Of a DNA stretch of 32,000 nt, positions 12,001 to 24,000 are shown piece after piece (position 1 is the first letter of the stretch; every line of letters begins with the position of its first letter). The position numbers are program-made. This DNA comes from Gammaproteobacteria bacterium (GTDB lineage Bacteria; Pseudomonadota; Gammaproteobacteria; JBIOEC01), in NCBI GenBank assembly GCA_965279305.1, contig OZ257143.1, forward strand, positions 540,001 through 572,000. The letters run 5' to 3'.

Positions 12001-15000
12001 TCTTTTTAATCATACCCAGCGCTCAAAAGAGCAAAAAGAACTAGTTGTATTGGTAACCCCTAGAATTTTAGGGGATATATAGCTCCTAATAGATTCAAGA
12101 CGCTATATCTGATATAGTAAAACCATCGTTTAATAAAGCAAAATCCTATGATTTCCACTATTTCTGTGCCATTACCTTCTGATAAAAGCTATCCTATTTA
12201 TATAGGTTCTGGCTTACTAGAAAATAACGATTATTTAAAAAAACATATCACGTCTAGCCGTGTCATGATCGTTACCAATACCACCATAGCACCGTTATAT
12301 TTAGAAACACTGTTGATGACATTAGATGATTATCATTGTGATACCGTTATTATTCCTGATGGCGAATCCTATAAAACATGGGATCAACTCACCACTATTT
12401 TTAATGCACTGATTGAAAAAGGACACGATCGTTCTACCACTCTTATTGCTTTAGGTGGTGGCGTTGTCGGTGATATGACAGGATTTGCAGCATCGGTTTA
12501 TATGCGGGGTTTACCCTTTATTCAAATTCCTACCAGCTTACTGGCGCAAGTAGACGCTTCTGTGGGTGGAAAAACAGCCGTCAATCATCCTTTAAGCAAA
12601 AATTTATTAGGTGCGTTTTATCAGCCTGAATGCGTTCTTATTGATCCTAATACTTTATTCACATTACCTGAACGTGAATTACGCAGCGGATTAGCAGAAG
12701 TGATTAAACATGCACTGATTGCCGATGCGCTTTTTTTTGAATGGTTAGAAAATCATATGGACACATTGCTAGCCAAAGATCAGCCGTCTATTCAATATGC
12801 TATTGAACGCTGCTGCCAAATAAAAGCCCGTATTGTTTCAGAAGACGAACACGAACATCATATTCGAGCCTGGCTTAATCTTGGCCATACCTTTGCTCAT
12901 GCTATTGAGCACCTCACTCATTATCAATGGATACATGGTGAAGCGGTAGCGGTAGGGTTAGTATTAGCTGCTGAATTATCAGAGCAAAAAGGTCTTTTAC
13001 CGCTCTCATCTGTTTCTCGAATCACCCAGCTAGTGCAAAAGGCCAAGCTTCCTACACAACCCCCTCTTTTTGCTCCAGGGGCCTATTGGGACGCGATGCT
13101 ACGTGATAAAAAAAATAAAGCCGGCTGTCCTACCTTTATCCTATTAGAAAAAATAGGAGTGCCACTTATTTGTACTGGCTCCCACCATGGAATTTCTAAG
13201 AGCGATTTCTTTACCTTAATATTAAAAAAATCCCCTGTTTTCCCTTAAATAATGTAGCAAATTACACTATAATAATGATCCAAAGGTCTAGAGGTGAGTG
13301 ATAATGGACGATTTTCAGTGGTTGGAAGATAAACCACCCCAAAAACATCACCAATGGTTAAAAGATTACTGGCTACATATGATTGCCGTGGCAGTCATAG
13401 CGATTGTGCTCTTATTGTTATTGTTCAACCCTGCTAGCAAATCATCAACAGTGCCTGGCGCTTCATTAAGACCCGCAGAACCCAGCAATGAAGTTCAAAT
13501 GGCCTCTGCACCATCAGAAAATGTACCAAAAAAACAAATTTTGATACGCATGCCTGATAAAAGCACTAAAAAAGTGGAAACCACTGAAGATGGCACTACA
13601 CAATTAGCCGTGCCTACCACTAAAACAAAACCGTCAACCACTTTAATAAAACCCGCAACCAGACTATCAGCCCAATCATCTGCCAGTTCATCTACTAGTT
13701 CAAGCGAAGCAACCACAGTGAGTGAGGCTAATGCCCCTACGCTTGAAACTAATACGGCATCTACTGAGGCTCCTACTTTAGGGCCTAACTCCACCTCTTC
13801 AATTCCTTCAATAGGCAATCTTTCTACCCCGGTAACAACAGTTCCGCCTGTTAACACCCAAACAGAAACAGTCTCAGAAAAATCCACGCCCGTAGCAAGC
13901 AAACCTGTAGTAGAACCTATTACAGAAAAACCAGCTCCTAGCATTGCTGCGGCACCTGCAACACCTAAAACAGTTCCACCCGTAGAAAAAGTAGCGCCTA
14001 AAGCAGCTCCTATAGAACCTAAAACACCGGCGTCTAAAGCACCTGCTCCCGTTGTTTCTCAAGGAGATTCTGCTCTTTACACTATGTTAAAGCGCCCTGC
14101 TTCTCATTACGTTATTCAATTATTTGGTTCCGATAGCGAAGCATCCGTTAAATCATTTATTGCTAAAAATAATTTATCTAAAAATGCACTGTATGTAACC
14201 GTGTGGCATAACAACCAAAACTGGTTTATCGTTTTATACGGTGATTATGCCGATCGCAACCAAGCACAAGCAGCAATTCAAGAATTACCGACAGCAGTAA
14301 GCTCAAACAGTCCTTGGCCACGTAGTGTTCAATCAGTACAAGAAGCTATTCGTCAACGATTAGTTAGGGAAGGGATGAATTAGGATCTAGTTTTTTAGCG
14401 CTTGTCATTTTAGCTATTTTATTTTTAAAGGGTTTCATAATATCTCTAACGCTTTTCTTTAAAGCGCTTAACAAATTATCTCTTTCCCAGGCATGGTAAA
14501 ATTTTAGTTGTAGCAGAATTAATTGTTTGTAGATCTTTAAAACTGGATTGGACCTTCCTTTTTCCATAAAAAAACCTATTTCAATAGGTTCTTTATACTC
14601 ATATTTTTTCACTTCTTTTTGAGTTTTTTCAATAAAGTTATCTAATTGTTTATTTACCAAATTCCATAAAGAAAGATATTTTTCTCTCGCTAAATGAACC
14701 GTTTTTTTAGCATGCTCAATTGATTCAGGGCTAGTATCAAAAGCAATACCATCTACACCATATTCATGTTTGGCAATCAGCTCTGTAAAGAATGGATTAT
14801 CTAACAAAACAACAGGACATCCGCATAAAATTGCTTCTATAATAAGAGAAGAGTTTTCATAACAATAAAATAATTCGGATCGCGCTAATAGTTTGGCCAC
14901 TTCTGCTTGAGTGAGGGAGTCTGGTTCATTTCGTGTTATTTCAAAACTATTATCTGTGATCGGTAATGTTTTTTGGCCATGCGCACGTTTGTATTTATCC

Positions 15001-21000: not shown

Positions 21001-24000
21001 ATCGGGAGTTAAACCATGATGGCAGGCCATCAATATTCCTCCGCGCATCACTTGATCAGCACATGGATAACCATTTGGATCTTGCTTGCACTCAATATCT
21101 TTAAATCCTGGCTGTCTTAATATATTCCCGGTAAAAACGGTACGCGTTTGAATATTACGTTTTTCTAAAAATATTTGCATTTCGGTTCGCGTAAATGGAG
21201 CGCTGTCTTTTACAATCAGAGGGAATGCTAACCAGCCAGTTCTGGAATTAGCCAACTGTTTAGGTAACATAAACCATTCTTTAAAATCAGAGAAAAATTC
21301 ATAATGTTGTTTAAAAAAGTTTTCTCTTAATGAAATATTTTGATCCAGCTTATTCAATTGAACTAAACCAAATGCAGCTCCCATTTCGGAAGGTTCTAAA
21401 TTATAACCCAAAGCTTCAAATATAAATTTAGCATCGTATTTAATGCCATCCACATCTACATTAAATCGGTTTTCAATACGTTCAGATTCTACGAATAATG
21501 AAGAGCTTCGACCCCAACTTCTCAACAATTTAGCTCTGCTTTCTAAGCGTTCTTCGTTAACACACAGCATTCCGCCATTACCCGCGCAATTAATCACATG
21601 AGAGCCATAAAAGCTGGTGGTACTAATATCGGTAAATCTTCCAGAAGAAGTGCCATCAATCGTAGCACCTAAGGTATCAGCTGAATCTTCTATTACTAAC
21701 AACTGATATTTATCGGCAATTTCTCGGAGTTTTTTCCAATTAGGCAAGTTTCCTAATAAATTAGGGATCATTAATGCTTTTGTTTTAGGGGTTATTGCTG
21801 CTTCTACTTTTTCAGCATCAATATTAAAAGTGGCTGGTTCAACATCCACAAATACCGGAATTAATTTACTTTTGACCAAAGGCGCAACAGTAGTAGAAAA
21901 GGTTAATGCAGGTGTGATCACTTCACTGCCTTCAGGTAAATCGGCAATTTCTATAGCAAGATAATTGGCTGATGATCCAGAATTCACCATAATACCAAAT
22001 TGCTTGTTATATTTATCTGCAATTTTTCTTTCCATTTCACGCACATTTTTGCCCATTTGAGTAGAAGTTCTTAACACTTCCACTACAGCAGCAATTTCTT
22101 CTTCTCCATGAACGGTTTTTCCATAAGGAACATAAATATTAGTCATTAGTCACCTTCTTGTTAGGGTTAATAAAATATTGAATTTGCTCTAATGTAAATG
22201 ATCTCATATCCATTTTTTTATTTAAAAAGGCTTTGTACCATTTAACTGTTTCACTTAATGTTTGATCGATATTCCATACTGGCTTCCAACCTAAAAGCAT
22301 TCTCGCTTTAGTAGAATCTAGCATTAAATAATGCGCTTCATGTAATGCACTTTCTGTTATTTCTAATGGAGTTTTTTCGCGGCCCTGTTCAACCCAAAGC
22401 GATATTGTTTTATCAACCAAAGTACCAACACTAGTGATATCTTCAGGATTAGGACCAAAATTCCATGCTTCGTTATATTTTTCAGGATGATGGTATAATT
22501 TTTCTGCCAACACTAAATATCCATTTAAACAATCTAATACATGTTGCCAAGGACGTAATGCTTTTGGAAAGCGTAAAGAAATCGTGCTTTGGTTTTCAAA
22601 TGCTCGGATCACATCAGGAATTAAACGATCTTTAGACCAATCACCACCACCAATAACATTGCCCGCACGTACTGAAGCAACACCTGTTTTAGTGTTTTTA
22701 AAAAAAGAATTTCTATAAGCGGAAACCACTAATTCAGCGCACCCTTTGCTATTACTGTAAGGATCGTGTCCACCCATGGGATCATTTTCACGATAAGGCC
22801 ATACCCATTCGCGATTTTCATAGCATTTATCACTGGTGACTACCACAATTGCTTTTACGCTTGCACATGCTCTGGCCGCTTCTAGCATATGCACAGTGCC
22901 CATTACGTTGGTTGCATATGTATCCACTGGAAATTCATATGACGGACGAACCAATGATTGTGCTGCCAAATGAATAATAATTTCAGGTTCAAATTCACGA
23001 ATAGTTTTAGAAAAAAGAGGATAATCTCGTATATCTCCCACTACACTTTTCATATGTTTTTCAGCATGAGAAAGTGTAAATAAATTTGGCTCTGTTTCTG
23101 GTGCCAACGAATAACCTAATACATCCGCTTCTAAATATTGTAAAACTAATGAAAGCCAGCTTCCCTTAAAACCAGTGTGTCCTGTTAGCAGTACTTTTTT
23201 ACCTTTCCAAAATGAAGCTGACATTACCACTTTTTCCACGGTGCTTCCCCTGAATCCCAAAGCTCTTCTAAATAAGTTTTATCTCGTATGGTATCCATGG
23301 GATGCCAAAAACCAGAATGAAAATAGGCAGCCATTTGATTTTCTCTTGCTAATTTCTCAACAGGCTCTCTTTCCCAAATAGTATCGTCGCCATCAATATA
23401 ATCTAACACTTTGGGCGACAACACAAAAAAACCACCGTTAATCCAGGAGCCGTCTCCATGGGGTTTTTCTTGAAAACTTTCTACTTTGTCACCTTCAATT
23501 TTTAAAGCACCGAAACGGCCAGGTAATTGTGTAGCGGTTAATGTAGCCAATACATCTTGAGACTTATGAAACTCAATCAATTTTTTTATATCAACATTCG
23601 CAACACCGTCACCATACGTAAAACAAAATGCTTCTTCATTTTCTATATAAGGGCGAATACGCTTTAAACGGCCACCTGTCAGAGTTTGCTCGCCTGTATC
23701 AACGAGTGTCACTTTCCAAGATTCCGCGTTGCTTTGATGCACATGCATTTTATTATCAGCCATCTCAAAAGTGACGTCTGACATATGCAGGAAGTAATTG
23801 GCAAAGTATTCTTTAATAAAATAGCCTTTGTAACCAAGGCAGATGATAAATTCATTAATTCCATGAGCAGAATATATTTTCATGATATGCCATAAAATCG
23901 GCTTACCACCAATTTCAATCATAGGCTTTGGGCGAAGCAATGTTTCTTCACTCAAACGAGTACCCATTCCACCTGCTAAAATAACCGCTTTCATATTTAA

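Follow-up and report, generated by a model that had tools for sequence, protein, structure and literature searches.

The window analysed here is a 32,000-nucleotide (nt) stretch of a gammaproteobacterial genome (contig OZ257143.1, positions 540,001 to 572,000), and all coordinates below refer to it unless another sequence is named. At 14364-23994 it carries nine open reading frames (ORFs), arranged head to tail on the minus strand and here called p1 to p9, whose products resemble enzymes of cytidine diphosphate (CDP)-hexose and branched-sugar biosynthesis (Table 1). A first-pass annotation had described these ORFs as abutting or overlapping. All of its coordinates and junctions were recovered, and its family labels for the nine genes stand in profile, PDB and fold searches.

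Table 1. Genes of the CDP-sugar block and the adjoining spacer (SDR, short-chain dehydrogenase/reductase; ThDP, thiamine diphosphate; PMP, pyridoxamine phosphate; AF2, AlphaFold2)
Feature	Coordinates	Strand	Basis
p1, glucose-1-phosphate cytidylyltransferase (RfbF/DdhA type)	23224..23994	-	256 aa; TIGR02623 equivalog, 468.7 bits (cutoff 300); Pfam NTP_transferase
p2, CDP-glucose 4,6-dehydratase (RfbG/DdhB type)	22139..23224	-	TIGR02622 equivalog, 504.1 bits (cutoff 278)
p3, PMP-type CDP-4-keto-6-deoxyglucose 3-dehydrase, DegT family	20935..22146	-	403 aa; PDB and alignment
p4, extended SDR 'type A', proposed YerF-like reductase	19884..20972	-	Pfam Epimerase, GDP_Man_Dehyd
p5, three-domain ThDP carboligase, YerE-like	18082..19908	-	Pfam TPP_enzyme_N/M/C
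p6, short SDR	17408..18082	-	224 aa; TGxxGxxG and YxxxK; Pfam adh_short_C2, 155 bits
p7, AroB paralogue of the TIGR04425 kind	16313..17407	-	NCBIfam scores, active-site alignment
p8, divergent HpcH/HpaI-type class II (metal-dependent) 2-oxoacid aldolase	15495..16316	-	273 aa, GTG start; Pfam HpcH_HpaI, 35.6 bits (weak)
p9, GT-B fold glycosyltransferase	14364..15491	-	375 aa; AF2 and Foldseek
rsmD-p1 spacer	23995..24100	-	106 nt; weak hairpin, fold z-score -0.51

Read on the minus strand, the p1/p2 and p5/p6 junctions are TAATG (at 23224 and 18082), p4/p5 and p7/p8 share GTGA (19884-19887 and 16313-16316), and p2 and p3 overlap by 8 nt in ATGACTAA (22139-22146). Between p6 and p7 the sequence TAA-ATG leaves no gap (17407/17408), and p8 and p9 are separated by 3 nt (TAA-AAT-ATG, gap at 15492-15494). 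The overlap of p3 and p4 is 38 nt (20935-20972) if p4 starts at ATG 20972. In-frame ATG codons also lie at 20948 and 20933, the latter giving a 1-nt gap and a protein of 349 aa, the same length as the homologue in locus L001. The starts of p2 (TTG 23260 or ATG 23224) and p5 (GTG 19908 or GTG 19887, the latter giving 601 aa) are ambiguous as well; from ATG 23224 p2 has 361 aa, as in the gene call of a sister contig (L084). These choices leave the overall picture unchanged. Homologues of p8 open with the same MNxLE, in support of its GTG start. Within the block, promoter-like matches (27, with 39.4 expected by shuffling) and terminator-like matches (10, with 8.5 expected) were together graded as at or below expectation, and the promoter scan detected no sigma-70-like consensus promoter in the spacer between rsmD and p1. 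It is plausible from this layout that the block forms one transcription unit, perhaps reached by read-through from rsmD.

The first three genes make a strong case, by homology, for a predicted sugar arm. p1 would form CDP-glucose, p2 would convert it to CDP-4-keto-6-deoxyglucose, and p3 would remove the 3-hydroxyl group by PMP chemistry to give CDP-4-keto-3,6-dideoxyglucose. The best PDB match of p3 is E1 (3bcx, 231 bits), followed by ColD (154 bits). p3 has a His where E1 has His220, and the E1 residues C192, C193, C251, C253, C257 and C261 are all substituted. A role of p3 as an aminotransferase was ruled out by this His at the Lys position, which is present in 44/44 aligned p3 homologues. 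The E1 cysteines are kept in 31 of these 44, are all absent from the p3 of the window and from 11 loci of the Legionellales/Rickettsiales type (400-413 aa), and are reduced to a single one in one paralogue (L033). Among the annotated ORFs of the window no E3/FNR-like reductase gene was found. The label 'E1/ColD-like 3-dehydrase', given at first pass, holds for the dehydrase family; because the iron-sulfur ligands are absent, ColD-like is the better label, and for the same reason p3 probably regenerates PMP by transamination from an amino acid, as ColD does, without an E3 reductase. ColD, a GDP-4-keto-6-deoxymannose 3-dehydrase, shares with p3 an active-site His where aminotransferases have Lys, the lack of an iron-sulfur cluster and the lack of a dedicated reductase partner, whereas p3 is nearer to E1 in sequence and presumably acts on a CDP-sugar. 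We found no description of a Cys-less E1 variant in the searchable literature.

The YerE-likeness of the ThDP enzyme p5 was judged through JanthE from Janthinobacterium sp. HH01 (PDB 8RPH), its best PDB match (E 5.7e-126, 424.6 bits; best acetolactate synthase 254 bits) and nearest solved relative. JanthE, which is YerE-like, joins 2-oxo acids to ketones and has a broad donor range, pyruvate included; its physiological substrates have not been identified. p5 scores under the cutoff of every acetolactate synthase model and has the canonical ThDP motif GDG...NN, where JanthE has CDG. Together with the two equivalogs p1 and p2 and the dehydrase p3, this relationship bears out the earlier proposal that the first five genes make a CDP-activated branched deoxyhexose. 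The extended SDR p4, whose best PDB match is UDP-glucuronate decarboxylase (112 bits), is proposed from its gene context to reduce the branch carbonyl, the role of YerF.

The AF2 model of p8 (pLDDT 89.4) has HpaI/HpcH as its top Foldseek matches (E 3.6e-8). Its NIET motif is aligned with 'qvEs' and its GRVD motif with 'GpaDL' of YfaU, which we take to hold the metal ligands Glu153 and Asp179. p8 is the most conserved member of the module, with homologues 60-70% identical across phyla. Relying on the model, we propose that it is a pyruvate aldolase that would supply a 4-hydroxy-2-oxo acid donor. Antisense to p8, a plus-strand ORF of 108 aa (15643-15969) recurs in 36 loci; because 97% of its copies overlap core genes, it appears to be a by-product of aldolase conservation and not a gene. 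An aldolase paralogue with 37% identity lies on pILYOP01 of Ilyobacter polytropus (159322-160095, L089), next to aconitase, isocitrate/isopropylmalate-type dehydrogenases, a four-carbon acid sugar kinase and a 2-hydroxycarboxylate transporter. Since this is an organic-acid catabolic context, the aldolase fold family seems to have a catabolic branch as well.

p7 is a paralogue of AroB, the 3-dehydroquinate synthase (DHQS). Its top model is TIGR04425 (375 bits, cutoff 400), followed by the aroB model TIGR01357 (278.5 bits, cutoff 305). The housekeeping AroB encoded 3 kb away (12148-13248) shows the reverse score pattern (TIGR01357, 385.6 bits) and is 29% identical to p7. That p7 is itself the housekeeping AroB was rejected, as it scores below the TIGR01357 cutoff in a genome with an AroB of its own. 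TIGR04425, named 'AroB-related putative sugar phosphate phospholyase (cyclizing)', is a hypothetical equivalog without a tested function. In PDB searches p7 scored 155 bits with DHQS, 108 with ValA and 88 with DOIS. Each of the 13 DHQS active-site positions examined (13/13) is kept in 166 or more of the 167 p7 relatives, and 11 positions do not vary at all; they were mapped by motif and not by a structure-based tool. They presumably correspond to Arg130, Asp146, Lys152, Asn162, Glu194, Lys197, Lys250, Arg264, Asn268, His271, His275, His287 and Lys356 of Aspergillus nidulans DHQS, whose roles were reportedly described by Carpenter et al. in 1998. We take the conserved positions to include the phosphate binders as well as the binders of the C1 carboxylate, Lys250 and Arg264. 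The equivalents of these two residues would be expected to differ in sedoheptulose 7-phosphate cyclases and DOIS (EEVS, DDGS, EVS, DOIS); p7 retains both according to the motif mapping, which was made against DHQS. p7 has the fold, the NAD+ and metal sites and the 13 active-site positions in common with the AroB/sugar phosphate cyclase superfamily, but it differs from AroB in lying in a nucleotide-sugar operon and in a proposed outcome that may be non-cyclising. The best PDB match of p6 is FabG (99 bits), and we propose that p6 is a ketoreductase and the obligate partner of p7. The searchable literature yielded nothing relevant on dehydroquinate synthase in connection with branched sugars, and the combination of a DHQS paralogue with an obligate short SDR in an acyl-branched sugar pathway is not described there.

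A scan of one genome per species found relatives of the aldolase in at least 478 species representatives. The best 80 loci were taken, and the counts given here are over 83 loci (tblastn) or over 84 (these 83 and the window). Carriers among the best 80 are metagenome-assembled genomes (MAGs) of Legionella/Coxiellaceae, Microcystis, Pseudanabaena, Elusimicrobia, Bacteroidales (Gabonibacter massiliensis), Helicobacter zhangjianzhongii, Nitrospira, Vampirovibrio and others, the nearest homologues of the module being in the Legionella/Coxiellaceae MAGs. Near the aldolase gene, tblastn located a ThDP gene in 73 of the 83 loci, a short SDR in 51, a DHQS-like gene in 48, an E1-like dehydrase in 48, a 4,6-dehydratase in 45 and a cytidylyltransferase in 43. 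The ThDP gene is immediately upstream of the aldolase gene in 42 loci and the two are adjacent in 44/84, while the DHQS-like gene stands directly 3' of the short SDR in 38. Extended SDRs of type A (p4) occur in 31 loci and those of type B (~295 aa) in 32, never both in one locus, and the p4 type usually lies just upstream of the ThDP gene. The closest p7 relatives (~50% identical), encoded on metagenomic contigs, show the same order of ThDP gene, SDR, DHQS-like gene and aldolase gene; in these contigs the CDP-sugar genes come first, and GtrA, a family 2 glycosyltransferase (GT2) and a membrane protein of ~830 aa are inserted. A plasmid search returned three records, namely two unannotated megaplasmids of Novosphingobium humi, on which the cytidylyltransferase, 4,6-dehydratase and aldolase genes are consecutive, and the Ilyobacter paralogue. 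The p8-p5 DNA had no match in Escherichia coli genomes. The combination is no peculiarity of the window but recurs across many phyla, usually beside GtrA/GT2.

Comparison of these loci showed that the short SDR and the DHQS-like gene occur together in 48/84, a haloacid dehalogenase (HAD) phosphatase in 18/84 and both in none (Fisher p=9.5e-9, a value that overstates independence because the loci are phylogenetically related). Each of the two locus types is spread over several phyla. Either the DHQS-like pair or the HAD gene usually follows directly after the aldolase gene. The short SDR was found only with the DHQS-like gene, and exactly one extended SDR, of type A or B, goes with the ThDP gene in both locus types. 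This alternation is not described in the searchable literature. The variant with aldolase and HAD mirrors KdsA/KdsC and NeuB-type synthases with their phosphatases, in that condensation on a sugar phosphate would be followed by HAD dephosphorylation. KdsA/NeuB-type synthases use phosphoenolpyruvate and their products are activated with CMP, whereas the module has a pyruvate-type class II aldolase and its acid is proposed to feed the ThDP ligase. In three cyanobacterial and Thermoleophilia MAGs (L026, L028, L049) neither ThDP nor CDP-sugar genes lie within 10 kb of the aldolase and HAD genes; there, the pair may serve some other end by producing a free 3-deoxy-ulosonic acid. In a gammaproteobacterial MAG (L013 11579-12370, from OZ257153.1) a 263-aa protein with HCxxGxxRS, the signature of dual-specificity/tyrosine phosphatases and unusual in a sugar cluster, is encoded beside the aldolase and HAD genes.

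For p9, which belongs to a small family that Pfam does not model, sequence searches of Pfam, NCBIfam and the PDB were all without a match. Its AF2 model (pLDDT 89.7) is matched in Foldseek by GT-B transferases (8xsh, PimA, BshA, WaaG; E 7e-9 to 1e-5). A p9 homologue with 52% identity belongs to a betaproteobacterial MAG cluster with WaaL, Wzm/Wzt and the complete module, and in Pararobbsia silviterrae a p9 homologue adjoins Wzm/Wzt. The window itself contains no wzx, wzy, wzz or Wzm/Wzt, no ABC exporter, no initiating transferase and no glycosyltransferase other than p9, in agreement with the first-pass view that it is not a standard O-antigen locus. ORF clustering placed a GtrB-like GT2 in 46 loci and GtrA in 31, with a large membrane protein (~840 aa) also present in eight. 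The coupling of GtrA with a GtrB-like GT2 is the pattern of periplasmic, undecaprenyl-phosphate-linked glycan modification. In relatives the module has neighbours of the kind known from gtrABC-type O-antigen modification and ABC-dependent O-antigen loci; of such partners the window has only p9. Because p9 is the sole transferase of the window, a single cytoplasmic transfer by p9 is likely; the core of the lipopolysaccharide as acceptor would be a guess.

Much of this gene set has a published counterpart. As laid out in the main text of Steitz et al. 2022 (PMC9306805), a 'unifying scheme' for acyl-branched sugars, among them yersiniose, erwiniose, caryophyllose and gastriose, has an aldolase make a 4-hydroxy-2-oxo acid, a YerE-like ThDP enzyme join it to CDP-4-keto-3,6-dideoxyglucose, and a reductase finish the product. 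The same text states that YerE uses pyruvate and that the long-branch enzyme ErwE rejects it, and that the M. marinum gene MMAR_2331, of the aldolase/citrate-lyase family, and the ThDP gene MMAR_2332 are both needed for caryophyllose (PMC9306805, PMC5706390), which is 3,6-dideoxy-4-C-(1,3,4,5-tetrahydroxyhexyl)hexose (PMC5706390). YerE-like clusters have reportedly been catalogued in silico. The long-branch clusters presented by Steitz et al. (ErwE/F/I/J; MMAR_2331/2332; MygE/F/I; R. palustris) resemble the block in their acceptor genes, pyruvate aldolase, YerE-like ligase, NAD(P)H reductase and glycosyltransferase (PMC9306805); p8 is set beside MMAR_2331 by description only. p1-p3, p8, p5, p4 and p9 match the scheme one-to-one. 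Neither a DHQS-like enzyme nor a paired short SDR nor a HAD phosphatase appears in the main text of Steitz et al., and the aldehyde proposed in it is unphosphorylated (acetaldehyde or compound '28'), in contrast to the phosphorylated one considered here (PMC9306805). The pathway of yersiniose A in Yersinia pseudotuberculosis (DdhA-D, YerE, YerF) likewise starts from CDP-glucose, uses a 3,6-dideoxy-4-keto acceptor, branches it at C4 with a ThDP enzyme and reduces the ketone. It differs in its pyruvate donor, its two-carbon branch and its iron-sulfur E1 with E3, whereas the block has an aldolase arm and a Cys-less dehydrase.

The first-pass annotation saw no counterpart in this route for the last four genes and no described pathway that matched. 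In the published scheme, however, the aldolase, one reductase and the glycosyltransferase are matched; it is the DHQS-like/short-SDR pair alone that is undescribed in the searchable literature. A higher-carbon sugar, one of the products it had suggested, is the best reading. We put at roughly 50% the probability that the block is a self-contained pathway of the YerE/ErwE/caryophyllose type, which would make a CDP-3,6-dideoxyhexose whose C4 bears a long branch derived from an acyl donor, together with its transferase. With this interpretation all nine genes have a role. The gene families, the conserved residues, the linkage and the mutual exclusivity are observed, whereas we infer which substrates are used, how the steps are ordered, that no ring is formed and what product results. 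p8 would join pyruvate to a phosphorylated aldose, most simply erythrose 4-phosphate, to give a 3-deoxy-2-ulosonate phosphate similar to DAHP, the 7-phosphate of 3-deoxy-D-arabino-heptulosonate. By transient oxidation with NAD+, beta-elimination of phosphate and re-reduction, p7 would convert the terminal CH(OH)-CH2OPO3 to a methyl ketone; reduction of this ketone by p6 would give a 3,7-dideoxy-heptulosonate that is still a 2-oxo acid. p5 would decarboxylate this donor and add it to the C4 ketone, and p4 would reduce the branch carbonyl. The predicted product is a caryophyllose-like C12 sugar that p9 would transfer to its acceptor. In the HAD variant, the phosphate would be hydrolysed and the chain would end in CH2OH rather than CH3.

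The alternation of DHQS-like and HAD genes suggests that the aldolase product carries a phosphate and that the aldehyde is a sugar phosphate. As the pocket of p7 is fully DHQS-like, a seven-carbon, DAHP-like substrate that bears a carboxylate is suggested, which in turn points to erythrose 4-phosphate as the aldehyde. The choice of 3,7-dideoxyheptulosonate as donor follows from the caryophyllose side chain, which its decarboxylative addition and reduction would give. Also in favour of this interpretation, a ring-locked substrate analogue of DHQS passes through the early steps, and ring opening and aldol reaction do not follow (PMC7144000).

Several points weigh against this interpretation. p7 falls slightly short of the TIGR04425 cutoff, and p3 falls short of the RfbH model NF011936 (317 bits, cutoff 423). 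The DHQS residue numbers were placed on p7 by motif and not by a structure-based tool, the roles of p4 and p6 are supported by context alone, and the identity and phosphorylation of the aldehyde derive from the DHQS-like/HAD alternation alone. Moreover, in 18 loci, several of them truncated, both the DHQS-like gene and a recognised HAD gene are missing. The interpretation is drawn from gene content and sequence features. Finally, because the late DHQS steps are regarded as mostly spontaneous, a free DAHP-like acid would tend to cyclise, and the 2-oxo acid needed by p5 would be lost.

This last point leads to the strongest alternative, in which p7 is a true cyclase. The phosphorylated chain would first be joined to the CDP-sugar; after elimination, its terminal carbon would attack the branch carbonyl, as C7 attacks C2 in DHQS, to leave a C-linked cyclitol on C4, and p6 would reduce the ring ketone. 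The whole DHQS catalytic set is present in p7, and once the enol exists, ring opening and aldol reaction, with which the DHQS sequence ends, are regarded as largely spontaneous (PMC7144000). Furthermore, carbocyclic bacterial sugars are known, namely caryose and bradyrhizose. The paper on bradyrhizose describes its biosynthetic genes as unknown and draws attention to a cluster of 11 genes, a dTDP-glucose 4,6-dehydratase among them; a link of the block to either sugar is neither supported nor excluded. However, cyclisation would consume the branch carbonyl and so make the extended SDR, best accounted for as the reductase of that carbonyl, unnecessary, and this SDR is kept equally in DHQS-type (38/48) and HAD-type (14/17) loci. 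The retained carboxylate binders, presumably the Lys250 and Arg264 equivalents, point to a free acid as substrate, and a simple phosphatase can replace the p6/p7 pair in relatives. We regard this cyclisation on the sugar as unlikely, and are similarly doubtful of the broader idea that p7 closes a six-membered carbocycle on the side chain, be it after joining or by a route that still feeds the ThDP enzyme.

Considerably less probable is a division of the block into two products, where p4 would serve as the 4-reductase in the synthesis of a common CDP-3,6-dideoxyhexose by p1-p4. From p5-p8 would come an acid, a cyclitol or a 2-deoxy sugar unrelated to it; p5 would then simply decarboxylate its substrate or transfer pyruvate to a different ketone. 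The generic extended-SDR character of p4 would allow this, and in L026, L028 and L049 aldolase and HAD occur without ThDP or CDP-sugar genes nearby. Against it, the order of extended SDR, ThDP gene and aldolase gene is kept across phyla together with E1-type dehydrase and CDP-glucose genes, the nearest relatives of p5 are ketone-accepting YerE-like enzymes, and no CMP-ulosonate synthetase or other activating enzyme was found among the conserved gene clusters around the module. Least probable of all is a plain yersiniose-type pathway with a pyruvate donor, a two-carbon branch and independent aldolase, DHQS-like and SDR genes (e.g. shikimate-related): YerE does use pyruvate and JanthE accepts it among its donors, but the genome has its own AroB only 3 kb off, the aldolase and ThDP genes are neighbours in over half of the loci counted (44/84), no other shikimate genes are among the conserved clusters around the module, and the long-branch ErwE rejects pyruvate according to the main text of Steitz et al. 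(PMC9306805). Both of these readings fit the conserved gene order poorly.

The kind of pathway, with its logic of aldolase, ThDP enzyme and reductase, is already published, and NCBIfam lists the DHQS-like family as a hypothetical equivalog. Caryophyllose, erwiniose and aurantose are acyl-branched surface antigens, and the source of their long, partly deoxygenated chains is merely sketched in the literature. If the long-branch interpretation is true, the DHQS paralogue and the short SDR would constitute a new route from a sugar phosphate to a terminal-deoxy end of the side chain. Whether this end is CH3 or CH2OH would then be predictable from sequence in hundreds of mostly uncultured bacteria, including Legionellales, Microcystis, Bacteroidales, Elusimicrobia and one Helicobacter. 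It would also give the hypothetical family TIGR04425 a testable function and YerE-like biocatalysts such as JanthE a likely physiological context. If p7 cyclises, a widespread, phylum-crossing module (aldolase relatives in at least 478 species) would place a sugar with a C-linked cyclitol branch on cell surfaces. This would be a new carbocyclic sugar, an undescribed class of glycan building block and a second use of DHQS chemistry beyond aromatic and aminocyclitol metabolism.

The block had also been called more AT-rich than its flanks, as would fit acquisition. Its GC content is indeed 3 points lower (36.4% and 39.6%; per-gene Mann-Whitney p=0.006), but the GC content at third codon positions (27.0% and 29.1%, p=0.17) and codon usage (18% of random gene splits are equally distant) are indistinguishable from the flanks, so that the claim is weakly confirmed and the argument for acquisition is weak. 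At the block borders no tRNA, Rfam element or meaningful flanking repeat was found, and there is no integrase or transposase among the annotated ORFs. The sister lineage L084 carries the same arrangement, with nucleotide identities of 92.9% over the block segment and 93.7% over the adjacent segment, which indicates that the block predates the split of the two lineages. A metagenome scan with RsmD gave no close relatives but 30 distant ones (RsmD identity up to 49%) in which 6 kb or more around rsmD is available, and 0/30 hold block genes there; they keep ftsYEX, and some also the M16 peptidase genes, beside rsmD. Exceptions in identity were two short partial matches (62-63%). That the block arrived recently between damX and rsmD as a genomic island would be in line with the lower GC content, with the absence of block genes near rsmD in these relatives and with the patchy occurrence of the module across phyla. 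Nevertheless, we consider it improbable in view of the flank-like codon usage and third positions, the lack of island marks, the shared arrangement in L084 and the comparison genomes, which are too distant to date an insertion.

Upstream of the block, the plus-strand genes are pilM, pilQ, aroB and damX. The last is convergent with p9, the two 3' ends sharing 20 nt (14364-14383), and no terminator-like site was found in or beside this overlap on either strand. On the other flank, rsmD, two M16 peptidase genes and then ftsYEX have the orientation of the block. The usual order is pilMNOPQ-aroK-aroB; in the window, pilM (312 aa), pilQ and aroB follow each other at 9777-13248 with neither pilN/O/P nor aroK between them, and the pilM and pilQ ORFs overlap by 73 nt. 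GC content falls to 0.32 near 10.5-11.5 kb, and the pilM-pilQ-aroB layout is the same in L084.

Between yajQ and mrcA, a pair of 'mobile mystery protein A/B' genes (TIGR02612 and TIGR02613) lies on the minus strand at 6138-7186, in a slightly AT-rich stretch. In L084 the pair shows helix-turn-helix and Fic domains, and it may represent a small insertion, either mobile or resembling a toxin-antitoxin system. At 1730-4957 on the plus strand, three ORFs in a row (621, 123 and 137 aa) are without a match in NCBIfam. Next comes a stand-alone receiver-domain protein that is matched by about 40 sensor-kinase/response-regulator models, including that of the Legionella sensor kinase LetS.

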